Assembly (NCBI GenBank): GCA_965234725.1
Contig: CBDDUX010000048.1
Coordinates: 1 to 35,676, forward strand
Reading direction: 5' to 3'
DNA length: 35,676 nucleotides
Source of the DNA: Thermoplasmatota archaeon
Lineage (GTDB): Archaea > Thermoplasmatota > Penumbrarchaeia > Penumbrarchaeales > Penumbrarchaeaceae
Shown one piece after another: positions 4 through 16,554 of the stretch. The notes beneath the pieces were generated by a model. It was given only the letters and a program-made list of their open reading frames with translations, made no database searches and was not told where the DNA came from. Each line of letters opens with the position of its first letter. Within the stretch, counting starts at the first letter, position 1. The position numbers were made by a program, and so were the translations under genes.

Positions 4-3000
4 TTGATCAGGGTTCACTTATGCGACTTAAACCCTCCGCGAAAATCGGTGTTAAATGATCTTACATATGGTTTCGAATTGGGACATTATGATAGGTCAA
101 GGACAATTGTGATAGATCCCGTTGTTTTCTCCACTTATCTTGGAGGCACAACATCTGAACACGGGGAAGGCATTACGATGAAAGATAATGGAGATGTCTA
201 TGTCACAGGACAGACCTCGGCATGGGGATTTCCAACAACTACAGGAAGCTACAAGATAGAAAAGCTGGGAGGACTCGATGCTTACGTGGCCAAGTTCAAC
301 CCGGATGGAACATCACTTGACATCTGCACATTTATCGGGGGGACCGGAGATGATACGGGATTCGAGGTCCAGCTTGATCCAAACGATAATATTATAATCG
401 CAGGAAGGACAACTTCCGATGATATTCCGACGCATTCAAGTGCCTTTGATAACGAATTTAGCGGTTCATGGGATGTATTCCTCCTTAAGCTAAATCCTAC
501 AATGACAACATTCATTACAGGTAGTTATTACGGAGGCAACGGAACGGATGCAGCCCTGAATCTCGTTGTCGACCAGAACGGGAATAGTTATGTTGGAGGT
601 TGGACAACTTCAGAGGACCTTGTTATCACGAACAACAACATTGATGACGATTACGGCGGAGGAGATATCAGCGCCTTCCTCTTCAAGACAAATCCGATGA
701 TGACCATTCTTTCCTATTCGACATACGTTTCAACACTCCAGGATGATAGGATATCTGGTCTCGATGTGGACGATCAGGGAAATGTCTTCATAACGGGTAT
801 GACAAGGTCTGATCAATTCCCATTAACAGCTTCTCCACGCGACAACACTTACGAAGGATCCAGCGAGTCCTTCATCATGAAGATTAACTCAGCCTGCAAT
901 CAGATATTGTACTGCTCCTACCTGGGGGGTTCTGGAGGTGAGGGAGGGTACGGCCTGCAGCTGGATGATGAGGGAGACATATGGATATCTGGAATCACCT
1001 ATTCAAGTGAATTCCCGGTAACAACAGGTGTCTATCAATCAAATTATAACGATAACGGGGATATTTTCGTTACCGAATTGGACGGTACTGATTTCTCTGT
1101 CAAACAGTCCACATTCATTGGAGGTTCGGGAAGAGACGGACCGATCGATATGGTCATTGATGCATTCGGAAGGATTACTATTGTCGGAGACTGCTCCTCC
1201 GATGACTTACCTGTATCGGATGATGCCCTCCAATCCTCATATAACGGTGGGACCAGCGATGGATTCGTAATAACCATATCCAGCGATCTCTCCGAGTTAT
1301 TGTATTCATCGTATATCGGAGGAGATGGATGGTTTGACACGACTACATCTGTTTGTTCCGACTTGAACGGTCATATTTCCTTCTGCGGATGGACTGATAA
1401 TGAGACTATACCAACAACTCAAGATGCCTATGGCCGAGAAAATAACGGATTCGAGGATGTATACGTTATGGGTCTCCTGCTTGACACCCCTCCATCAGTA
1501 CCACTTAACTTCGAAGCGGTATCAGGGGATGGGTTCGTTCATCTCACTTGGGATGACCCGGAGGATGAAGGGTCACAGCCTTTGACAGGATTCGATCTGT
1601 TCAAATTGACCAATGGGACAGGAAATGTGGACGTCTTAGAACTTGATCTTGTTAAAGAATACAATGATACGGATGTTGAAAATGGTAAGGAATACAGGTA
1701 CTGGTTGAGAGCCTCTAATCTTGCAGCCAATTCACTCTTCACCGGGATAATTAGCACCATTCCTCTTGGTCTTCCCTCAACACCTCTTGGTTTCAATGTG
1801 TTATCCGGCATTAGGACGATAACAGTTGAGTGGGACTACTCAATAGACGACGGCGGGACCCCTATAACGGGATATATCATACAGAGGAAGTGGAACACAA
1901 CCGAAATGTCAAGAATGGAATTCGGAACAATGGATCATGGATACATCGACACAGATGTTGTACCGGGTCTGGAATATACATATTCCATTATGTCGAAGAA
2001 TATTGTTGGTAATTCTATACCATCTATCGAGGAAACCGGAATTGCAATTGATGTTCCTTCCCCCCCTGAAGAATTAATAATTGAATCAGGGGACGGATAC
2101 GATCTTCTCACCTGGGAGAGACCATTGACCGACAGAGGTTCCAAGATTAACAATTTCAACATCTACAGGACCATGGAAGGAGATCAGGTGAGACTTCTGA
2201 AGACAGTATCCTTGAACACATTAAGCTACAATGACACAAAGGTCGTAAATGGATATGAGTATACGTATTATCTAACCGCAGTGAACAGCGTTGGAGAATC
2301 ACCTCCATGCGAGGAGATAACGGTTACTCCCACGGCCGTTCCCTTAGAGCCCCTATTCTTCGATCTCTATCAGAATGGAGAAGAAATCATCATTACATGG
2401 GAAAAACCGATGGATGACGGTGGTTCGCAGATCACCGGTTATGAGATAAGAAAGGATATCGGAGGCAACTCAGAAACGATCGAGGTCGAGGCTGGTACTT
2501 ATGTTTACATCGATAGCGATTTTGCATATGGTTCGGCTTATAATTATACTATCAGAGCAGTCTCGGAAGTGGGCTTCTCTATATGGGCTCCTGTTCAAGA
2601 GATAACACCTCTGTCACCACCCGGGAAACCAACGGTGGAATTGTTGGGATATTCTGACAGATTTGTTCACATAGGTTGGACAGAAGTAACGATCACCGGC
2701 GGGACAGACATTCTCGGATATCTAATATATAGATATCAGACTGGGATTCCGTCGATCATTGGCGATGTGAATGCAAATACCCTTTCATTCAATGATTCAA
2801 ATGTGGAAAGCGGGGTCCAGTACAGCTATTCTGTTGCTGCATATAACAGCATTGATGGATCGATGTTATCGGAAAATGTCTCAGTGGAAACCATAGGATT
2901 CCCTTCAGAACCCTTAAACCCTGCAGTATCACATGGTGACGGGATATTGACAATTACATGGGACCAACCTCTTATGACGGGAGGTTCAGAGATAAGGTCA

Positions 3001-3882
3001 TTTTCTATTGAGAGAACAACCATATATGATCAGAATGTGGATATGTTCTCGGTTGAACCCAATGAAATGCAATTCCTCGATGATACAGTATCCCCTGGTG
3101 AGGAATATGGATACAGGATATCCGCTGAAAATATCAGAGGATCAGGACCATCAACCGTCATTGTTTTAACAAAAGCGATAGAAAAGCCGGACATCATGGG
3201 AAATTTTATTGCTACAACAAGTAAGGATAGGATCGACCTTTCATGGGAAGGCGTTAATAATGAAACAACGGGAGCGGTCCATATCATTCTCGAGAGGTCC
3301 GTGGATGGAGGTCAGTATTATCAAATAGCGGACCTCCCTGAAGACAAAACAACATTCACAGATACTGATATCAGGGCCGGTGTCAAATACAACTACAGGA
3401 TATTTTCAAGAAATATTGTAGGTGAATCTGAGATCCTCGAGGTTACCTCGATCTCAATTGAAGTGGGTGAAGAGGGGACATCGACTGGGATGTTCGTATT
3501 AATGTTGATCTCCTCTATCCTTCTCTTGGTAATTGCCTGCATCGTCTTCTTCTTAGCCATCAGAAAGAAGATAGAACCACAGGAACAGCAAAAGGAAGAT
3601 GAAATTATCGAGATATCACGGTATGAACAAGGAGAGGTGGAGAACGGGATTGTTAATGAGATCATGCAACCTAATGATATGTATCAGCAGCCTCCAGTGG
3701 AACCCGATATACCAGTGGATGTGAGTATGGAAAGTGAAGTGGGACCTCTTTCATCATCGGAAGATCTCGGCCCTTTACTTCAGGATATTGAACCGCATTT
3801 CGATGGTGATCCTGCAATTCCAATTGAACCGGGAACGGACCGTTCCGTTCATGAGGCTCCGATCGAGGAGGTGATATCATGA
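4..3882 (+). CDS. Cell-surface protein, 5'-incomplete: 7 SBBP-type beta-propeller blades, 7 fibronectin type III repeats, C-terminal TM anchor and acidic tail
   Basis: Blade motifs STYLGG, CTFIGG, GSYYGG, STYVST, CSYLGG, STFIGG and SSYIGG, with YVTGxTxSxxFP-type segments. FN3 motifs such as LTWDDPEDEGSQPLTGF and YTYYLTAVNSVGES. TM segment MFVLMLISSILLLVIACIVFFLA followed by IRKK. It lacks the signal peptide and N-terminal domain of the downstream paralog, and the frame is open to the window edge. Confidence 0.9.
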   Translation: MIRVHLCDLNPPRKSVLNDLTYGFELGHYDRSRTIVIDPVVFSTYLGGTTSEHGEGITMKDNGDVYVTGQTSAWGFPTTTGSYKIEKLGGLDAYVAKFNPDGTSLDICTFIGGTGDDTGFEVQLDPNDNIIIAGRTTSDDIPTHSSAFDNEFSGSWDVFLLKLNPTMTTFITGSYYGGNGTDAALNLVVDQNGNSYVGGWTTSEDLVITNNNIDDDYGGGDISAFLFKTNPMMTILSYSTYVSTLQDDRISGLDVDDQGNVFITGMTRSDQFPLTASPRDNTYEGSSESFIMKINSACNQILYCSYLGGSGGEGGYGLQLDDEGDIWISGITYSSEFPVTTGVYQSNYNDNGDIFVTELDGTDFSVKQSTFIGGSGRDGPIDMVIDAFGRITIVGDCSSDDLPVSDDALQSSYNGGTSDGFVITISSDLSELLYSSYIGGDGWFDTTTSVCSDLNGHISFCGWTDNETIPTTQDAYGRENNGFEDVYVMGLLLDTPPSVPLNFEAVSGDGFVHLTWDDPEDEGSQPLTGFDLFKLTNGTGNVDVLELDLVKEYNDTDVENGKEYRYWLRASNLAANSLFTGIISTIPLGLPSTPLGFNVLSGIRTITVEWDYSIDDGGTPITGYIIQRKWNTTEMSRMEFGTMDHGYIDTDVVPGLEYTYSIMSKNIVGNSIPSIEETGIAIDVPSPPEELIIESGDGYDLLTWERPLTDRGSKINNFNIYRTMEGDQVRLLKTVSLNTLSYNDTKVVNGYEYTYYLTAVNSVGESPPCEEITVTPTAVPLEPLFFDLYQNGEEIIITWEKPMDDGGSQITGYEIRKDIGGNSETIEVEAGTYVYIDSDFAYGSAYNYTIRAVSEVGFSIWAPVQEITPLSPPGKPTVELLGYSDRFVHIGWTEVTITGGTDILGYLIYRYQTGIPSIIGDVNANTLSFNDSNVESGVQYSYSVAAYNSIDGSMLSENVSVETIGFPSEPLNPAVSHGDGILTITWDQPLMTGGSEIRSFSIERTTIYDQNVDMFSVEPNEMQFLDDTVSPGEEYGYRISAENIRGSGPSTVIVLTKAIEKPDIMGNFIATTSKDRIDLSWEGVNNETTGAVHIILERSVDGGQYYQIADLPEDKTTFTDTDIRAGVKYNYRIFSRNIVGESEILEVTSISIEVGEEGTSTGMFVLMLISSILLLVIACIVFFLAIRKKIEPQEQQKEDEIIEISRYEQGEVENGIVNEIMQPNDMYQQPPVEPDIPVDVSMESEVGPLSSSEDLGPLLQDIEPHFDGDPAIPIEPGTDRSVHEAPIEEVIS
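1486..3465 (+). repeat. Seven tandem FN3 coding repeats (about 95 aa each; boundaries approximate)
   Basis: Units begin PPSVPLN, LPSTPLG, VPSPPEE, VPLEPLF, PPGKPTV, FPSEPLN and KPDIMGN, each with a W..P...GG..I..Y-like and a Y.Y.I.A.N..G.S-like motif. Confidence 0.8.
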
Positions 3883-6800
3883 GGACAGGGAAAATATTGA
3901 TACCCCTCACTGCCATTATCTTAATATCTGTATCCTTCTTGAGTTTGATACAAGGTGAGGGTAACGAGGAAGAATGGACCTACGGTGATCCGTCCTTGAT
4001 GGAAATGGAGCCATCGGGTCATTTCACCGAGAATCTCGGTCAATGGGATGAATCCATTTCATTTGTGGGGGACACGAATACCGGAAGGATCGGTATCGGG
4101 ACACATTCGATCTTTCATGAACTGAGAACCTATTACCCGGATAGGGAGATGGAAGTGGACCATGACGAGAACCTCTTAATCGGATATCTTCTCAAGGTGG
4201 ACATGGTGGGATCAAATGATGTAGTCCCGGTGGGATCGGAAGCACTCTCCTTCCCCTCAAGCTTCTTCAGGGGAAATGACCCTACCAAATGGGTTTCCGG
4301 AGCCAGGAGCTATCAGAAGGTCCACTATTCCGGAATATGGGAAGGAGTCGACCTGGATTACATCATATCTGAAGCCAGGCCGAAATACACTTTTACTCTG
4401 CAACCGTGCATCGATGTTGATACCATAAGAATGGATTTCAAGGGACAGTCATCTATGAATGTTGGAGGTGATGGTGCCACATTCGTTTTCGAAGATGGCA
4501 TCGAATTCAGAGATAGTGGTCTTCTTGCCTACTATCAGGATGACGGAACGGTGATCCCAGCACGTTTTATCCAGGATGGACCACATATAGGATTCGCCCT
4601 CAAGGACAGAGACCTTTCCAGGGCTGTTGTGATCGATCCGATAGTCACATCGACTTTCTACGGAGGGGCGGGAAGTGACACGGGTCACCGGATAAAGACA
4701 GATGATAATGGAGATTATTATATTGCAGGTAAAACCTATTCTGTTGATTTTCCAACAACTCCAGGAAGCCTAAAACAGGGATATTCGGGAGAGTGGGGAG
4801 ATATGTTCGTTATCAAGATGAACAAGTCCCTTAAGACCCGGGATTATTCCTTCATGTTCGGTGGGACCCACGCTGAGGAATTTGGAGATCTTGAGATCTA
4901 TAATGGACAGGCTGTTGCATCTGGTTTTACACAATCGGATGACTTCCCGACAACCCCGGGATGTTACGAGAACGAGAGCGCTGGTGGTTGGAGGGATCCC
5001 TACCTCTTGAAGATCAACAGCTCGGGTACGGGACTTATTTTCTCGACTATTATCACAGGTTCCTCCGATGAGTTTGGATATGGGATCGATATAGAAGAAA
5101 ATGGTAACATCATATACGTTGGTTACACAGGTTCCGATGACTTTCCGGTAACCTCGGATGCATATTCATCAACCAAGAATGGCTCCTATGACGCATTCAT
5201 TCTCAAGATGCTTCCAAATGGTACCGACATTGTCTACTCCTCATACTTCGGTGGAAATAATTTCGATAATCTTTATGACGTAGAGATACTCGACTCGGGA
5301 GATGTAATGTTTTACGGCGGGACCTTGTCAAACGACCTGTATTTTCCTTCGGATTCATATGACTCAACCGCATCTTCATCAGGAAATGGATTGGTAATTA
5401 GGATGGATATCAACATTTCCAAAATAAATGCCGCAACCCTGTTCGGATCTGGAATTGGAAATGGCCTGATCGATCTTGAGATCAAAAACAATGGTAATGT
5501 GGCACTTCTCTGCTATGGTACAGGTTATCCAACCACTAGCGGTACTTTTAACCCCTCTTCGAACGGGGGAAATGATTTCGTCCTGGCAGAATTGGATATT
5601 AACCTAACAACACTTGATATGTGCACATATGTTGGGGGTTCACTAGCGGATGATAATGGGAAACTGAGCATCGATAGCAAAGACAATTTCATCATATCCG
5701 GATACACTCAATCCACGGATTATCCGACCACCCCAGGAGCATACGATGAGACCTACAACGGAACCAACAATGTGAACGGAATCGTGTCAAAGATAGACGA
5801 ATCAGGAAAATATCTGATGTATTCCACCTTCTTCGGAGGGTCCGGAAGGACCTACACAAGGGATTTCGTTCTTGTATCCGATTTCAACGTGGTAATCACG
5901 GGTACCACTAATTCCCCTGATTTCCCCGTAACGGCAGGTGCTTATGATACAACAATTGGTGGTGGTCCTGATATATTCATCACGGAGTTCAGTTTCCTTT
6001 CAGCTCCAACGAGTCCAATGAACCTTACAGGGACAAAAGGATACGATTGGATCCATCTGCAATGGGAAGCTCCAAAGGATGACGGGGGCAGACCGATCCT
6101 TGGATATGAACTCCACACGGTCCAAAAGGGAGGTCTTCCCGAATTGACTACTTCCCTTTCTTTGAACACATTCGAATATAATGTAACCGGACTCAAACCT
6201 GACGGTGATTACCTGTTCTATGTTATTGGAAGGAATATCATCGGATTATCATCCCCCTCAAACAGCATCAGGTTCCATGACACCATCGCACCTTGGCTTG
6301 GAATGGACTTAACCCAGTCGGATCACTCTCCGCTTGGAACTACTACGTTCAAGATAATTGCTAGCGACAACACATTCATTGACAGTGCATACGTAGAATA
6401 CTGGATCGGGGACCGATTCGGAAACATGAATAGGACAATGGAAAGGGATGATCAATTACATTCATTTATACTGGACCATCCGGATCAGGTCTTCGAGATG
6501 CGTTACATGTTCCGTTTCAATGACACATCGGATAACTGGTTCAACAGCCGGATGTTCTCGTTTAATGTTACAGGGGAGGTTAAGCCATCTATCGTTCAGG
6601 ACTTAACGCCCTCCACGATAAAAGCGGGTGAGGTCCTGAATTTTAAGGTCGAGGCATCTGACAACGATGAGGTGAAGTCGGTGCATCTGAATTATCAATC
6701 TAACAGCGGTTTGAACAACAATGTCACAATGGACATGGTCAGCCCGAATTTATTCGAATACAAGCTTCCCACGAAGAGGTATTCACTTACACCAATCAGC

Positions 6801-8255
6801 TACAAGTATTTTGTAATGGATGCCTCCGGGCACTGGAACCAGTCCCAAGAGATGACCGTGATAATTCTTGATGTGGATTCACCGGTCCTTTCCTATGACC
6901 GGACCCCTCTTCAGGCTTTTACAGGTGAAGAACTTCTCTTCGAGATATCTGTCAGCGACAATCAGAGGATCAACGAGACATGGGTCAAATTCTCAGTAGA
7001 TGACGGACCATATGAAAATGCTACAATGGAGAAGAAACAGGGAGGTTTTTTTGAGCATACCATATTGGTTCCCCATACGCTTGGCAGAATTAGATATTCA
7101 TTCCATGCACTAGATGAGAATGGAAATATCGGATGGTTGCCTGAAAAGGAAATACCGATAATCGACATGGTCAAACCTTCGATAATTGTAGACCGAACCA
7201 ACATCACAGGTCCCACAGGCCATCAGGTACTTTTTGAATTCGAGCTTGATGACAATATAAAGGTGGGAGATGCTGTTGTTGAATACTGGTTTGGAACGGG
7301 AGATCACAGATATCTGGAACTCTTTGGGGCATCCATCTTCACCGGTCAACTGGAGATATCGTCAGGATACAAAGGATCGATATCATACAGTGTGAAGGTT
7401 TCGGACACAAGTGGAAATTACGTGAAATCAGAGATTGCCATGTTGGAGATATTTGATAATGAGCTGCCGGAGATGTTAGAGGATTTTACAGTTGGAACGG
7501 CGGAAACAGGTGGGCAGATATTGTTCAAGTTGAAGGTTTCGGACAATTCCGCTATAAAATTGGTAAAGGTTGAATACGGATGGTCCGGAGAGATATCTGA
7601 AACCGCATTAATGGATGGAGAGGTTGATGACAGCTATTTTTCTTGGTCTGTCACTGTAAAAGAAGATGATGTCTCCCCAATGAACTACAGGTTCAGGATA
7701 GAGGACACATCCGGAAATATGATCGCCACAGACATTAGGGAGATCACCGTAGTGGACACCATTTTCCCTGAGATCACACCACCGTCCCAATCTGTACTAA
7801 CCATATCAACAACAACCGAGATCAATATCCTTGTTGAGGCAACCGACAATATAGGTGTTGAGAGCCTCATTATATCCGGTAGTCCTATCGAACCGGTCTC
7901 CGGAAGGATTAGAGGTTACATTGATGAACCGGGCCACTATTTCATCGATGTGAAAGCAGTTGATGCCCAGGGAAATGAAGCATCATACAGTTTCATTTTA
8001 CGTGTTAAGGGAGATAGTATCGATGAAACCGAAGAAAGCTCAGATACATGGATGCTCTTTCCCCCAGTCATCTCACTGGTTCTGCTCATGGTCGCATTGA
8101 TCGTCCTGTTCACGAGAAAAAGGTCCAGGGACCATAGAGAAAAAGGACCTGTGGACCTATCCACCCTCAAGGTGCAAAATGGAAATAACATTCAATCCCA
8201 GTCAATGGAGAAGGATGAGGACCTCACCGAAATTAAAGATCTCTTTGGGAACTGA
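3879..8255 (+). CDS. Cell-surface protein: signal peptide, N-terminal SBBP-associated domain, 7 SBBP blades, one FN3, about 6 Ig-like repeats, C-terminal TM anchor
   Basis: ATGA overlap with the upstream gene and a GGAGGTG RBS. Signal peptide MRTGKILIPLTAIILISVSFLSL. Motifs FTENLGQW, FFRGNDPTKW and VVIDP. Repeats start DTIAPW, GEVKPS, DVDSPV, DMVKPS, DNELPE and DTIFPE, each with an (S/D/T)DN motif. TM segment followed by RKRSR. Confidence 0.92.
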   Translation: MRTGKILIPLTAIILISVSFLSLIQGEGNEEEWTYGDPSLMEMEPSGHFTENLGQWDESISFVGDTNTGRIGIGTHSIFHELRTYYPDREMEVDHDENLLIGYLLKVDMVGSNDVVPVGSEALSFPSSFFRGNDPTKWVSGARSYQKVHYSGIWEGVDLDYIISEARPKYTFTLQPCIDVDTIRMDFKGQSSMNVGGDGATFVFEDGIEFRDSGLLAYYQDDGTVIPARFIQDGPHIGFALKDRDLSRAVVIDPIVTSTFYGGAGSDTGHRIKTDDNGDYYIAGKTYSVDFPTTPGSLKQGYSGEWGDMFVIKMNKSLKTRDYSFMFGGTHAEEFGDLEIYNGQAVASGFTQSDDFPTTPGCYENESAGGWRDPYLLKINSSGTGLIFSTIITGSSDEFGYGIDIEENGNIIYVGYTGSDDFPVTSDAYSSTKNGSYDAFILKMLPNGTDIVYSSYFGGNNFDNLYDVEILDSGDVMFYGGTLSNDLYFPSDSYDSTASSSGNGLVIRMDINISKINAATLFGSGIGNGLIDLEIKNNGNVALLCYGTGYPTTSGTFNPSSNGGNDFVLAELDINLTTLDMCTYVGGSLADDNGKLSIDSKDNFIISGYTQSTDYPTTPGAYDETYNGTNNVNGIVSKIDESGKYLMYSTFFGGSGRTYTRDFVLVSDFNVVITGTTNSPDFPVTAGAYDTTIGGGPDIFITEFSFLSAPTSPMNLTGTKGYDWIHLQWEAPKDDGGRPILGYELHTVQKGGLPELTTSLSLNTFEYNVTGLKPDGDYLFYVIGRNIIGLSSPSNSIRFHDTIAPWLGMDLTQSDHSPLGTTTFKIIASDNTFIDSAYVEYWIGDRFGNMNRTMERDDQLHSFILDHPDQVFEMRYMFRFNDTSDNWFNSRMFSFNVTGEVKPSIVQDLTPSTIKAGEVLNFKVEASDNDEVKSVHLNYQSNSGLNNNVTMDMVSPNLFEYKLPTKRYSLTPISYKYFVMDASGHWNQSQEMTVIILDVDSPVLSYDRTPLQAFTGEELLFEISVSDNQRINETWVKFSVDDGPYENATMEKKQGGFFEHTILVPHTLGRIRYSFHALDENGNIGWLPEKEIPIIDMVKPSIIVDRTNITGPTGHQVLFEFELDDNIKVGDAVVEYWFGTGDHRYLELFGASIFTGQLEISSGYKGSISYSVKVSDTSGNYVKSEIAMLEIFDNELPEMLEDFTVGTAETGGQILFKLKVSDNSAIKLVKVEYGWSGEISETALMDGEVDDSYFSWSVTVKEDDVSPMNYRFRIEDTSGNMIATDIREITVVDTIFPEITPPSQSVLTISTTTEINILVEATDNIGVESLIISGSPIEPVSGRIRGYIDEPGHYFIDVKAVDAQGNEASYSFILRVKGDSIDETEESSDTWMLFPPVISLVLLMVALIVLFTRKRSRDHREKGPVDLSTLKVQNGNNIQSQSMEKDEDLTEIKDLFGN

Positions 8256-11109: not shown

Positions 11110-13372
11110 TCCTCCACATCATCTTCATCGAGCACAATGGCGACAATTGGTTCTTTTTTCACCTTAGGTCCGGAGGGCCTGACTAGAACAAACACTGACC
11201 AGCTGATACTTACAAGTAATGCCAGCGCACCAATGAACAGGATGATCCCAGCTCCCATATCGCCCTTAATGAATGAAAATGAACCTTTCTCATTATCATC
11301 CTTAGCTCTTGAAAGAGGTATTGCCGTGTCATCTCCATCATCTGGATCTATGGGATTGGGGTCAATGATCTCCTCCTCCAGGACCGTATATGTGAAATTG
11401 AACCATTTCACATCCCCATCGGGATTTGTCACCCTTGCAGTGAGGTTATGTTCTCCTATCTGCCCCCAGGGTCCCTGACGAAGCTGGAGATCAAGGGAGA
11501 TGTCATGGGTGTCAATTATCCTGTTGCCCACGGACCAATCGACATTGAGTTCCCTTTCGGATGGGTCCTTAACCGGAAGCAAGATGTGGAGATACTCATT
11601 CTTCTTGAACTCACCCCTTTCAGAATCTATCTCACCCGTGATGATGATCTCAACTTTGACATCCACAACATCGACTATCCAGTCTATCCTTTCAAGAACG
11701 GATTCGAAATCGGTGTCCAGCATTATGAAGGTCACGATATGTTCTCCGGCATCATCGTTATCCGGTCTGTACATGAATCCCCCTCCTCCCAGGGATTCGA
11801 CCTCATCGTCGACCAACCATTCCGTTGCATTGATCTCATGGAACCTTTCCTTATCTATCAGTACCTCGAACCTGAGTTCCATACCCTCGTCGATGGTCTG
11901 TCTGCCTTCGGGTGAGAAATCAAGGATCAGATCATTCAGGATGATCTCCTCTTCAACCTTCAATGTGATACTCTCTTCTGAATATATTCCCCACTCCAAA
12001 GAGCTCACATTCAGAATGATGGTATGGGGCCCTGGTTCCAATATACTGGTAAAGGATGGTTCAGTCCCAAATATACCGGATATGTTCGATGTCCACAAGT
12101 ACACAGCATCGGTCACAATTACATTGGAATCCATGGAGGAATCAAACACTGTTGTATAGTTGTAAGGGAAGATGGCTCCATCTTCCGGGGATGTTATGGA
12201 TGCTGAAATGACCGGTTCTTCACTTACAAGAGGCCCTTGGAATGGGCCGACCTCTGTTTGGAATTTGCCATCGGAAACATTGAAGGAGAAATCATACTCA
12301 CCGCAGTCAAGCATTAGTTCGATCTCATACCTTTCCCCATTGGATACATCACCATCAGTAAGATAATTGGAGTTCCCCCCAACCTGAGACATGGATGGGC
12401 TCATCCTCTTACCTTCTATGATCAGGACCAATCCATCTCCTGAAGGGGTATCACCTCCCCCATCCGTGTAGGTTATCGAGAATCTGAAGGTATCATTGCA
12501 GTTCCCGGATTCGGGAGATAGGTCAGGGTCCGATAGGACCGGTGGCGTATTCGCCCTCTCAACTGTAGGCCCCGAGATCTCCCCGGTCCCTGGGAATCTT
12601 ACTGTATCCGAACCATCCGTTGCTTCGAAGTGGAACGGATGGTCCCCTACTGCCAGCTTGAGCGATGCTGAATATATTTCTCCGGTCTTGATGGAATCCT
12701 GTGATCCGTCTTTCGGTGCAAGTGAGTGGGCTGTACCATCGATAAAAGCATCGATCCGGTCTGGGAGATCTCCATTGATGTCTTGGTAAGTGACCTCGAA
12801 AGTGAAGATAGAATCTGTATCACCTGATCCGGGTGATACTCCCCCCTCAGAAAGTTCAGGCGGATCATTGTTTACTGTTATGGATGAAGTATCTGTTCTT
12901 TTGATTGCATTTCCATAATGGTCCGACTTCATGGTAGCTTCTGCACGAAGAGTATCAGGACCGCCTTTCAACCCAGAAATGTCAAAGACCACATCCTTGG
13001 TCCATCTATATGGTTGGGATGAACCGGAAGGTCTCTGATTGTTGAATGTGACCTGTGACGGAACATCTACCCTGGAGTTGACCGATACGAGTTTGACCGT
13101 CATATCGAACTGCCAGTGGCTGTCTGTACCATCTGCGGTCACCTCGATGGATATCGTTACCTTATCACCCTCTCCGACATCGATATCCCCGGGTGCGGTG
13201 ATCACCGGATCATTGATAACAAGATCATATTTTCCACCGTGACAGCTGTCGCAGGAATCGACTCCCCTTGAGGGTATGCCTTCGAATAAGGTCAGAGCAC
13301 TGATCGGTCCGATCACGATCAAGGTGGCAACGATGACTAAAAAAAAGAGGATAGAAAGGGACCTTGATCCAC
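11100..13372 (-). CDS. Membrane-anchored surface monoheme CxxCH protein on an Ig-like stalk; probable start GTG at 13372 is out of frame by 1 nt (ORF track start is 13322)
   Basis: GVDSCDSCHGG near the N-terminus. Two tandem repeats (NDPPELS...FTFEVTYQD...FHFEATDG and NTPPVLS...FRFSITYTD...FSFNVSDG), further Ig/PKD-like segments and a C-terminal TM. The in-frame hydrophobic stretch SRSLSILFFLVIVATL extends upstream of 13322. Confidence 0.75.
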
Positions 13373-13477
13373 TTTGATCCTCCCTTTCCGACTGTCAGAG
13401 TACCACCTTGTTCCAAGAATGGGAATCGAAAAGAGGTTAAAAAATTATTGGAAAATTCAAGATTATAATAGAAGAAT

Positions 13478-13494
13478 GGGCGGAATTTCCGCCC
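13478..13494 (-). terminator. Hairpin GGGCGGAA-N-TTCCGCCC downstream of the CC1-like gene
   Basis: Perfect 8-bp inverted repeat 25 nt after the stop at 13520, followed on the minus strand by T/A-rich sequence. Confidence 0.6.
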
Positions 13495-13519: not shown

Positions 13520-13687
13520 CTATTTCAGTTCCTTTGCCTGCTTCTCGGAAAGGATCCTCCAGCACTCATGGGGCCCGGAGGGGGACTTTGCTACCGCGAA
13601 GTACCTGCCCTTTTTTTCCCTGATATCGAACTTCTCGGTCTTGAACTTGTTTTTGGCTTTCACGTCGTAGAATTCTATCTCGGCCAT
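13520..13687 (-). CDS. 55-aa basic protein resembling crenarchaeal chromatin protein CC1 (not in the ORF track)
   Basis: Hand translation gives MAEIEFYDVKAKNKFKTEKFDIREKKGRYFAVAKSPSGPHECWRILSEKQAKELK. GGAGGT RBS at 13694-13699, TTTTAATA box at about 13737-13744 and a downstream hairpin. FYDxKAK, FAVAKSP and R(I/L)L match the CC1 sequence as I recall it. Confidence 0.8.
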   Translation of the reverse strand: MAEIEFYDVKAKNKFKTEKFDIREKKGRYFAVAKSPSGPHECWRILSEKQAKELK

Positions 13688-13821
13688 CTTCAAACCTCCA
13701 CGATATTGAATCGCTATGGTCTCAATACAGGGAATCTATTAAAATCCTTTTGCCGGGAGGTGTGAATATGTTCATAATTCACCACTTGGTGTTGGGGAGA
13801 TCTCTCTAAATAAAAGAAGGT

Positions 13822-14097
13822 CTACTCCCCGTGACCTTGAAGGTACCTTTTTCCTTTATCCGTAAGTACGAGATAGTTGGGATGGGACCCATCGTCATGA
13901 CAAGTGGAAGCTACTGGACAGTTCGAGCATCTGCTTCCACAATCGGTACTGGCGATCGAGGTCTCCTTGATATATCCTGACCTCTCCAGCATGTGTACCC
14001 TTGAGTGGAGCTCTTCTCTTTCCAATCCCATCTCTCCGGCTATCTGTGAAAGTGTTTTCCCTCCCGTTTGGATATATTTCAGAAGTTTGGCCATCAT
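13822..14097 (-). CDS. feoC: FeoC-like winged-helix protein with Cys cluster (possible Fe-S site)
   Basis: HTH segment KTLSQIAGEMGLEREEL...LERSGYI, then CGSRCSNCPVASTC and YLVLTDKG. Last gene of the feoB operon, with a TAATG coupling. Confidence 0.75.
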   Translation of the reverse strand: MMAKLLKYIQTGGKTLSQIAGEMGLEREELHSRVHMLERSGYIKETSIASTDCGSRCSNCPVASTCHDDGSHPNYLVLTDKGKRYLQGHGE

Positions 14098-14561
14098 TAC
14101 TTTGCCCTCCTTATGTCAGGTCCTGAGCGGACATATTTCCATACTAACACAGACAGTATGATAATGAACGCAAGGATTATTGAAGGTTCCGCGAAATCCA
14201 GCAAGTCGGAACCCCCATTTCCGGTACCGATCAGTTCAGAAAACAGGTTTGATAGAGAGATCAGAAGTCCTGTAATACCTTGGACCACTGCAAGGAAAGC
14301 CCCAACCATGAAATAGGACCTGATATCCCCTGCCTTTCCTCCGGAAAAGAGGGCACCGGCCCAAAACGTGGAGGATATAACAAGCAGAACAAAAGCTCCT
14401 ACCAGGTCGTTATCGAGGACGCCAGAGGGATCATTGATGACCTCTGTCGAAACCATGATCTGCAATATACCCAGGGCCAAGTATATTGAGCCAAGAATTA
14501 CACAGACGATCTTAAGGATCCGAGGCACCCCAACAGGTTGGAAATTCCTATTAGAAACCAA
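14097..14561 (-). CDS. Uncharacterised 4-TM membrane protein within the feo operon
   Basis: Four hydrophobic segments. It overlaps the feoB stop and the feoC start. Confidence 0.75.
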   Translation of the reverse strand: MVSNRNFQPVGVPRILKIVCVILGSIYLALGILQIMVSTEVINDPSGVLDNDLVGAFVLLVISSTFWAGALFSGGKAGDIRSYFMVGAFLAVVQGITGLLISLSNLFSELIGTGNGGSDLLDFAEPSIILAFIIILSVLVWKYVRSGPDIRRAK

Positions 14562-16554
14562 GTAGAAGCCCCCCTTGATAGATCAATAAGGTCAAAATGT
14601 ATGCCACGGACATAGTGTAAAGGATGGAGAATATGGTCCATGCCCACGATCCCGTCTCCTGCTTGATAGCTCCCACCGTGGCCAGGCATGGGATATAGAG
14701 GAGAACGAACACCATCAGTGAGAGACCTCCAAGTGAGGTTAGCCCCGAATCGGCAGCGATCCTATCGGTGAGGGCATTGTGGTCATCACCAACATTGTAC
14801 AATACTCCCAGTGAACTCACCACTATCTCCTTTGCAACGAATCCGAAGAGAAGTGCGATGGAGATCTTCCAATCAAATCCAAGAGGAGCCATGGCAGGGG
14901 CTATGAACTTGCCTATCGATGCGGCAATTGATGATGTACTTCCGTAATCCACCCTGTTGAAGGAAAGGGAAAAACTCGCAAGGAACCACATAATGATCGA
15001 ACCCAGCAGAATTACGGTCCCTGCTTTTTTCAAATATTGGAAACCCTTTTCCCAGGTGGACTTGAGAGAAAATCTGAGATCCGGCCCTCGATATCTTGGA
15101 AGCTCCATGATGAAGGGGGCAGGTTCTCCTTTCAGTATCGTTGATCTGAAAAGCTTGGCCGAAAGTATTGCAACGATTATTCCTAGTATATATAAACCGA
15201 AAATGACCAGACCGCCGGATCCCTTGAAGAATATTCCTGCAAGAAGAATGTAAACAGGAAGTCTGGCTCCGCAAGAAACGAAGGGATTGACAAGTATGGT
15301 TACCAATCTGTCCTTCTTATCATCTATCGACCTTGCCGCCATTATGGCAGGAACATTACAACCGAAACCAATGATCATTGGAATGAAGGATTTGCCGCTA
15401 AGACCGATCCGGGACATTATTCTGTCCATTACGAAAGCCGCTCGTGCCATGTAACCTGAGCTTTCCATTAACGATATTACAAGGAACAGGACCATAATGT
15501 TGGGAAGGAAGACAAGGACAGAGCCGACACCACCAACGATCCCTTCCCCCAGGAGTGATGCAAACCATTCCGGACCCACATTATCGAGGATCAGGTCCGA
15601 TAGACCTGCAGAGAGGATATCGATCATCTCCGAGAAGGGTTGGGCGAACTCAAAGGTCAATCTGAACATGGTCCAGATAATGACGAGGAAGATCGGGATC
15701 CCCAGATATCTGTTGGTGGCAACGGTATCAATGAGGTCAGAAAACTTCTCTTTGGTCTTCTTTCCTGATGTCACCATCTTCAGGATCCTGTCCACCTCAT
15801 GATACCTTCCATCAGTAATGGCGATCTCCATCTCCAAGGGATCGGCATCTCCAATTGCCCTCCTTGCTTCCCTGTCCAATCCATTATCCTTCAGTCTGTT
15901 CCAGATCCTTTGATCGCCTTCAAGGGCTTTGATCGCCATCCATCTGTAATGATGTCCCGGCATCGGAGACCTTCCGTTCAGTGCGGAATAAACCTCTCTT
16001 ACCTTTTTTTCAACAGGGTCCTCGAAGGAGATTATCCTGCCACAGGTCGCTCCGGCACCTGCCTCGCTGACTATTGCATCAAGCAATCCCTCGATCCCCT
16101 CACCCGTGGTAGATGATGTGGTCAGTACCGGAACACCAAGCTCTCTGGAAAGACCCTGGATATCTATCTCCGATCCGTTCTTCTCCTTCTGGTCCCACAT
16201 GTTGAGGACCAGGATCATCTTGCATTGGAGCTCCATCAGCTGAAATGTCAGATAGAGGTTCCTTCCAAGATTGGAAGGGTCTACCACATGAAGAACGACA
16301 TCAGGCTCTTCATCGATGATGTAGTCCCTGGAAATGACCTCATCTTCTGAATAAGCGGTAAGGGAATATGTTCCTGGCAGGTCAACAATCTCAAGGACCT
16401 TCCCTTTATGTTCTTTAATCCCGGTGACCTTCTCAACCGTTACACCTGGCCAATTCCCAACCTTAAGGTTCTCTCCAGTCAATTGATTGAACAGCGTTGT
16501 CTTTCCAACGTTGGGATTTCCCGCGAGTGCGACCCTTATCCTTTGGCTTGGCAT
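14551..16554 (-). CDS. feoB: Ferrous iron transporter B
   Basis: G1 GNPNVGKTT, VGNWPGVTVE, G3 DLPGTYSL and G4 NMWD. Membrane motifs SGYMARAAFVMD, GFGCNVPA, CGARLPVY, FIMELP, AKEIVV and LYIPCLAT. Confidence 0.97.
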   Translation of the reverse strand: MPSQRIRVALAGNPNVGKTTLFNQLTGENLKVGNWPGVTVEKVTGIKEHKGKVLEIVDLPGTYSLTAYSEDEVISRDYIIDEEPDVVLHVVDPSNLGRNLYLTFQLMELQCKMILVLNMWDQKEKNGSEIDIQGLSRELGVPVLTTSSTTGEGIEGLLDAIVSEAGAGATCGRIISFEDPVEKKVREVYSALNGRSPMPGHHYRWMAIKALEGDQRIWNRLKDNGLDREARRAIGDADPLEMEIAITDGRYHEVDRILKMVTSGKKTKEKFSDLIDTVATNRYLGIPIFLVIIWTMFRLTFEFAQPFSEMIDILSAGLSDLILDNVGPEWFASLLGEGIVGGVGSVLVFLPNIMVLFLVISLMESSGYMARAAFVMDRIMSRIGLSGKSFIPMIIGFGCNVPAIMAARSIDDKKDRLVTILVNPFVSCGARLPVYILLAGIFFKGSGGLVIFGLYILGIIVAILSAKLFRSTILKGEPAPFIMELPRYRGPDLRFSLKSTWEKGFQYLKKAGTVILLGSIIMWFLASFSLSFNRVDYGSTSSIAASIGKFIAPAMAPLGFDWKISIALLFGFVAKEIVVSSLGVLYNVGDDHNALTDRIAADSGLTSLGGLSLMVFVLLYIPCLATVGAIKQETGSWAWTIFSILYTMSVAYILTLLIYQGGLLLGF

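Follow-up and report, generated by a model that had tools for sequence, protein, structure and literature searches.

A 55-residue open reading frame (ORF) on the reverse strand of the window, i.e., the whole 35,676-nucleotide stretch of Thermoplasmatota DNA analysed here, was confirmed to be a genuine and strongly conserved gene. The explanation that accounts best overall for our results, and which we favour with some confidence, is that its product is a basic barrel of the Cren7 type within the CC1 superfamily that binds nucleic acid without sequence specificity, and that the gene is expressed from a promoter of its own and passed on vertically.

The gene, its putative signals, and its nearest named neighbours are listed in Table 1. 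The longest frame in the ORF listing (13520–13693, reverse strand) encodes 57 residues from a TTG codon at 13693–13691; because this TTG lies only 1 base past the GGAGG, we consider the ATG at 13687 to be the credible start. The resulting protein has a mass of 6.5 kDa and a pI of 9.5 and contains 11 lysine and 3 arginine residues, in agreement with the earlier note, which had described a Lys-rich product. The TATA-like box, ribosome-binding site, and terminator that the same note had reported were all located, and TTTTAAT was kept at a fixed spacing from GGAGG in 16 of the 16 aligned orthologous upstream regions. Downstream, a G+C-rich hairpin that differs from the one in the window, with a T-run after it, appears to be present in most orthologues, as judged by eye from unaligned sequences and without a count.

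Table 1. Features of the small gene and of the adjacent FeoB operon (window coordinates)
Feature	Positions	Strand	Details
FeoB	14551..16554	-	Pfam FeoB_N, E 5.7e-64
91-aa weak winged-helix (wHTH) protein with a Cys-rich tail	13822..14097	-	Between the small gene and the 154-aa ORF that follows FeoB
Promoter-like element, putative TATA/BRE	13737..13751	-	Purine-rich AAAAGGA, then TTTTAATA (box at 13744-13737); about 50 nt 5' of ATG
Shine-Dalgarno-like GGAGG	13695..13699	-	7 nt 5' of ATG; invariant in 16/16 orthologous upstream regions
CDS of the 55-aa protein	13520..13687	-	ATG 13687-13685; stop TAG 13522-13520
Terminator-like hairpin GGGCGGAAATTCCGCCC with a T-rich tail	13468..13494	-	Stem-loop 13494-13478, 26 nt past the stop; 7 bp, 6 of them G-C (hairpin scan)

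When an 1801-nt stretch around the gene was compared with RNA libraries, two metatranscriptome contigs from different studies matched, one of 263 nt over 13545–13807 with 1 difference and one of 154 nt over 13537–13690 with 0 differences. Both cover the small gene alone within this stretch, and contigs of this kind carry no expression level; a further RNA run showed coverage of 13227–13445, which lies outside the small gene. The contigs are a weak hint of transcription and no measure of its level. The small gene is probably transcribed monocistronically from its own promoter.

Homologues were readily retrieved by sequence searches. All 60 candidates from a word-indexed search were homologues at E ≤ 0.01 (56–93% identity, 49–89 residues), an exhaustive phmmer search of 1.84 billion representatives recovered 91 at E ≤ 1e-3, and a profile of 34 diverse members (alignment A1) recovered 1651 proteins at E ≤ 1e-3 among 2296 candidates. 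For 15 orthologues from the window's family (105 pairs), the mean pN and pS were 0.074 and 0.67, respectively, with a pN/pS of 0.11. The small protein is conserved better than its neighbours: it is 84–96% identical across the 15 named Thermoplasmat* loci, in which the FeoB stretch and the wHTH neighbour are 45–93% and 29–90% identical, respectively. Conservation in relatives had been set beforehand as a test of the ORF, and the 60 homologues together with the pN/pS value bear it out. The description of the gene as hidden or overlooked did not hold, since orthologues in public MAGs are already annotated as 'hypothetical protein'; the gene is thus unnamed rather than hidden. Searches by sequence gave no match to the small protein in Pfam, NCBIfam, or the PDB, and the best match in the PDB profile search, ribosomal protein L36 (E 0.46), was rejected as noise.

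The window's genome (3.54 Mb in 114 contigs, 97.65% complete) contains 1 copy of the gene. Among 301 Thermoplasmatota genomes, the gene was present in 17 of the 23 other members of its own family and in the window's own genome (18 of 24), and in 0 of the 277 genomes of other families; the 6 own-family genomes without a match are 62–90% complete. A scan of GTDB species genomes with a narrower alignment (A3) gave 280 confirmed stretches, the best 80 of which were characterised. According to their NCBI labels, these 80 loci comprised 15 from Thermoplasmat* MAGs (84–96% identity) and, all at 57–75% identity, 31 from Omnitrophota, 17 from 'Planctomycetales/Planctomycetia', 7 from Flavobacteriia, 3 from Spirochaetia, 1 from Elusimicrobia, 3 from Woesearchaeota, and 1 each from Nanobdellota, an unlabelled archaeon, and 'Methanosarcinales'. 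Within this set, the nearest relatives outside the window's own family belong to DPANN archaea and bacterial Omnitrophota, and no Thermoproteota locus was among the 80. The protein atlas gave unnamed clusters and a lead to DUF5679, with no taxonomic link to crenarchaea. Regarding the labels, at least one 'uncultured Planctomycetales' MAG (L071 = G434) was placed, against its NCBI label, in one phylum with the Omnitrophota genome G301, and a 1.2-Mb 'uncultured Methanosarcinales' MAG (L078 = G303) shares its phylum with the Nanoarchaeota genome G302.

The distribution is patchy, with matches in 9 of 151 genomes sampled from the Omnitrophota phylum and in 8 of 151 sampled from the Nanoarchaeota phylum. 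In a quick maximum-likelihood tree built on 56 columns, in which resolution was poor and 51 of the 88 inner branches were open, the Thermoplasmatota sequences formed one clade (SH-aLRT 99) that adjoins DPANN sequences (support 88), and both lie inside an Omnitrophota-rich group; because of the poor resolution, the tree gives no direction of transfer. As for carriage on mobile elements, 0 matches were found in phage records, 0 were confirmed in IMG/VR, and 0 were found in plasmids. Within the one Thermoplasmatota family, the gene would be inherited vertically.

The AlphaFold2 model based on A1 (pLDDT 88.1, pTM 0.63) contains strands at residues 4–8, 13–17, 21–25, 28–34, and 41–46 and a helix at residues 48–54, the latter corresponding to the extra C-terminal helix that had been proposed from the sequence. 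The protein is accordingly modelled as a five-stranded SH3-like barrel of the Cren7 type, apparently capped by this short helix. Among 48,161 chains, the top structural match was Cren7 (4r55_A; Z 5.6, rmsd 2.3 Å, alignment over 51 of 53 residues). The second-best chain had a Z of 3.5, and after it came zinc ribbons of NrdR and ZitP, ribosomal proteins with zinc ribbons, and Tudor domains. As a Z of 5.6 is below the structural search's own caution level of approximately 8, we read the match as a common small-barrel arrangement and not as homology. Foldseek returned no row at E ≤ 0.001, and its top rows mixed Sso7d/Sac7d and Cren7 (TM 0.50–0.60) with SH3, Tudor, and unrelated chains. Neither the window protein nor any of the 34 members matched the Pfam models Cren7 and 7kD_DNA_binding.

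Cren7 (PDB 4r55, 6a2i, and 5wwc) is a small basic five-stranded SH3-like barrel, as is predicted here for the small protein, but the two are only 8% identical in the structural alignment and show no sequence similarity, and Cren7 is not known to have a C-terminal helix. The topology of Sso7d consists of a hairpin, a three-stranded sheet, and a C-terminal helix. This architecture is common to Sul7d (Sso7d/Sac7d) and the model of the small protein (Foldseek TM 0.50–0.55 over 55–58 columns), although the Foldseek E values of 0.5–1.3 were not significant and no sequence similarity was seen. Sul7d is described, in the source passages available, as confined to Sulfolobales.

We infer, from a comparison drawn with CC1 through its published descriptions, that the small protein probably belongs to the CC1 superfamily. 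CC1 was reportedly described from Thermoproteus tenax by Luo et al. in 2007. The T. tenax protein has 56 residues and a pI of 10 (Hocher et al. 2022, Table 1), i.e., a size and charge like those of the small protein, and in the review passages available CC1 is a 6-kDa, monomeric, beta-sheet-rich protein; binding to both dsDNA and ssDNA has also been reported for it. Both are stand-alone small genes. The length of 55 residues, the basic character, and the predicted beta-rich fold of the small protein agree with these published descriptions and in this respect support the resemblance to CC1 that the earlier note had proposed. According to the accessible text of Hocher et al. 2022, no HMM for CC1 existed, and jackhmmer started from G4RKF6 at E 1e-5 was used instead. 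Table S1 of that study holds 230 CC1 rows, and the approximately 140 examined are basic proteins of 42–79 residues. Their sources include Thermoproteus, Pyrobaculum, a Desulfurococcaceae MAG, many Thaumarchaeota, DPANN archaea (GW2011-AR genomes, Pacearchaeota, and Micrarchaeota), a Bathyarchaeota MAG, ten 'Euryarchaeota UBA' MAGs, and two Methanomassiliicoccales MAGs. The claim that the gene extends CC1 beyond the crenarchaea was thus pre-empted by this table, whatever the CC1 membership of the small protein turns out to be.

The small-protein family shows the same length classes as the approximately 140 of 230 CC1 rows examined, and both the family and the published list include DPANN archaea. 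No Thermoplasmat*-named organism was found among those rows, and none of the 80 occurrences of 'Thermoplasmat' seen in the table stands in a CC1 row. Members of the family are 45–60 residues long, with the consensus FYDVK.K.KF...GR.FAVAKSP.G.HECWR. The small protein differs from CC1 in being a long form with a C-terminal helix, which is common to DPANN and Omnitrophota and not to the characterised crenarchaea, and in being encoded by a single-copy gene, as opposed to the four T. tenax CC1 rows of Table S1. The domain was also seen at the C-terminus of proteins of 117–260 residues (P0070, P0088, P0091, P0093, P0097, P0117, P0118, P0123, P0130, P0134, and P0148), whose N-terminal parts appeared, by eye, to be hydrophobic or membrane-spanning, coiled-coil-like, or unrelated.

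The protein atlas lead concerned DUF5679 (PF18930), which was present in 17% of the members of the rank-4 cluster and, for a short-form member of the family, in 40% at rank 12. The comparison set consisted of 16 stand-alone DUF5679 proteins of 46–55 residues from Thermoplasmatota genomes. Using hhalign, A1 was aligned with this set over the full length (48 collinear columns) with a score of 22.5, a P of 2.8e-4, and a probability of 41%. Column shuffles scored 7.8 ± 1.6 (maximum 14.1; 0 of 200 reached 22.5), the reversed profile scored 8.9, and the control zinc-ribbon families S27e and L37e scored 8.3 and 7.4, respectively. With a 232-sequence family alignment, the alignment was recovered at a score lowered to 17.7 and a probability of 11.5%. 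Cross-family HMM scores were weakly positive throughout, with 15 of the 16 DUF5679 proteins at a per-sequence E ≤ 0.011. The Pfam DUF5679 model matched 0 of the 34 members at E ≤ 1 and did not match the window protein at E ≤ 10. The AlphaFold2 model of DUF5679 (pLDDT 83) has the same five-strand order as that of the small protein, and its best structural match was also the 4r55 Cren7 chain (Z 4.2).

In the hhalign alignment, D8 and A11 lie opposite the first CxxC knuckle of DUF5679, and S35-P36 and G38 lie opposite the second, CPxCG. Across 259 members, the knuckle positions carry D8 (245), T/S/A at position 11, S35 (214), and G38 (204). A cysteine was found at position 8 or 35 in 2 of the 259 (P0139, at both 8 and 35, and P0129, at 8), and these two proteins may stand midway between DUF5679 and the family that lacks the cysteines. 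The two families have in common their length class and the motifs K-x-K, GR/GK, xP, and (Y/F/W)RI(L/G)G; they differ in that the family of the small protein has all four zinc-binding cysteines replaced and an extra C-terminal helix. Taken together, this is moderate evidence, and not proof, that the small-protein family is a cysteine-free derivative of the DUF5679 zinc ribbon. Two neighbouring genes on contig C3 of the window's genome (G000, 86861–89968), one of 394 residues and one of at least 165 residues in a frame of approximately 400, encode internal DUF5679 domains with an intact CxxC...CPxCG pattern, so that zinc-bound and cysteine-free forms coexist in this genome.

For Cren7 and Sul7d, Kaur et al. 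2018 (PMC5906684) argued for this same route, from a zinc ribbon to a cysteine-free derivative; the available text of that study mentions CC1 once and does not tie it to zinc ribbons, and a link between CC1 and zinc ribbons was found nowhere in the literature searched. DUF5679 itself appears, in the literature excerpts available, in connection with polintoviruses and virophage-related elements. We tentatively advance the reading, which we regard as a serious possibility a little short of probable, that CC1-like proteins, the small protein among them, are DUF5679-type ribbons that lost their four cysteines and closed to an SH3-like barrel, and that the long form with a C-terminal helix crossed the domain boundary. 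This long form would be common, at 57–75% identity, to one Thermoplasmatota family, DPANN, and a subclade of Omnitrophota, in the last of which it would stand in the fixed order M16 - CC1-like - rsfS - argS. If this is true, zinc ribbons gave rise, through repeated 'de-metallation', to these small barrel-type chromatin proteins of archaea.

By analogy with CC1, Cren7, and Sul7d, the small protein would bind nucleic acid without sequence specificity. The candidate binding face is the beta3-beta4-beta5 sheet with R28, K34, W43, and R44, which are the family's most conserved basic and aromatic residues and lie on this sheet (240, 219, 233, and 224 of the 259 members, respectively). The protein might act as an architectural or protective DNA binder, possibly also on ssDNA or RNA. 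One Alba gene (69 bits) and one histone-fold match (33 bits) were detected in the window's genome, in which neither HU nor MC1 was found; with Alba and a histone-fold gene present, there is no chromatin 'vacancy' to fill. Two CC1 homologues of N. maritimus account for only 0.071% and 0.025% of protein intensity in the data of Hocher et al. 2022, which lends no support to the abundance that the earlier note had proposed as probable. A major chromatin role is counted against by the presence of Alba and the histone fold, by the scarcity of these N. maritimus homologues, and by the rsfS and argS genes beside the bacterial relatives, which point to translation over chromatin.

Those bacterial neighbours bear on the alternative that the protein is RNA- or ribosome-associated, i.e., a degenerate module resembling a zinc ribbon, with rRNA, tRNA, or single-stranded nucleic acid as its ligand and a role in translation or in protecting RNA. 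Among the best 80 of the 280 loci, 59 are bacterial, mostly from Omnitrophota, and in these the small gene stands on the same strand between a peptidase M16 gene (40 loci) and the genes for RsfS (46) and arginyl-tRNA synthetase (45), one example of each neighbour having been confirmed by Pfam. No description seems to exist of a CC1-like protein with a fixed place among housekeeping genes of bacteria. Zinc-ribbon folds are frequent in ribosomal proteins, and L44e and other ribosomal chains were among the weak structural matches; the reported binding of ssDNA along with dsDNA by CC1 and the low amounts of its N. maritimus homologues for a nucleoid protein, both taken from the published passages available, also fit this alternative. 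Gene order alone, however, is weak evidence, in the window's own family the gene has FeoB and a surface protein for neighbours in place of translation genes, and the hhalign comparisons with the ribosomal zinc ribbons S27e and L37e were at noise level. The gene is moreover restricted to 9 of 151 Omnitrophota genomes, 8 of 151 genomes of the Nanoarchaeota phylum, and one Thermoplasmatota family, and this distribution is too patchy to fit a core translation factor. We consider an RNA- or ribosome-associated role less likely than the favoured reading of a CC1-type barrel with general affinity for nucleic acid, but a serious rival to it.

The neighbourhood in the window offers a further candidate function. 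The small gene lies between the FeoB operon, which consists of FeoB, a 154-residue ORF, and the 91-residue weak winged-helix protein, and a 740-residue ORF without a Pfam match. The helix-turn-helix matches of the 91-residue protein were weak and all under the Pfam cut-offs; by its position, it may be a FeoC-like regulator. Across the 15 named orthologous loci, FeoB is beside the small gene in 12, the wHTH protein is kept in 10, and the large ORF is kept in 10. The small protein could, on this basis, be an accessory of the adjacent Feo iron-uptake operon, such as a metal-binding or regulatory partner acting through D8, H40, and C42; these residues are conserved in 245, 190, and 211 of the 259 members, respectively, and metal binding is possible in principle. 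Against this, the small gene has a conserved promoter, Shine-Dalgarno sequence, and terminator of its own, 2 of the 15 own-family loci have none of these neighbours, FeoB included, and no match to the window's Feo proteins was found beside the gene in the 59 bacterial and 6 other archaeal loci. Because of these separate signals and because Feo adjacency is limited to one family, we regard a Feo role as very improbable. That the frame is open by chance or is an artefact of annotation, as might be supposed from its length of only 55 residues and from the lack of a matching curated family, is already refuted by its conservation pattern (pS 0.67 versus pN 0.074), along with hundreds of same-length homologues, conserved transcription and translation signals, and a confident fold prediction, and has practically no probability left.

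Several other genes were noted in the course of this work. At 4–8255 on the forward strand of the window, adjacent ORFs of 1292 and 1458 residues contain fibronectin type III domains, beta-propeller repeats, and DUF7948, and are probably surface proteins. On contig C7 of the window's genome (G000, 65320–66217, reverse strand), Alba (66059–66217) and ribosomal protein S27e (65320–65484) are encoded on the same strand within approximately 600 bp. Matches to ribosomal protein L37e in two Thermoplasmatota genomes, L180 (G009:C37:1776-1910) and G024:C25:496-645, are each interrupted by a stop codon in frame (TAG in one, TGA in the other), which could reflect sequencing errors or recoding.

Archaeal chromatin is a patchwork of small proteins, of which CC1 is the least understood; it has no Pfam model, and no solved structure of it was found in our searches. 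The small gene opens no new kind of system. It contributes a further member, single-copy and well conserved, from a Thermoplasmatota family that lives in sediment, shows close relatives in bacteria (Omnitrophota), and offers a testable origin of the family from a DUF5679 zinc ribbon that has lost its cysteines and folds like Cren7. The family alignment would serve in building the missing family model. Two points deserve further attention, namely, the possibility that the whole family descends from zinc ribbons and its occurrence, in a fixed gene order, in Omnitrophota. Confirmation of the zinc-ribbon origin would provide CC1 with both a fold and an ancestry and would widen its range considerably.
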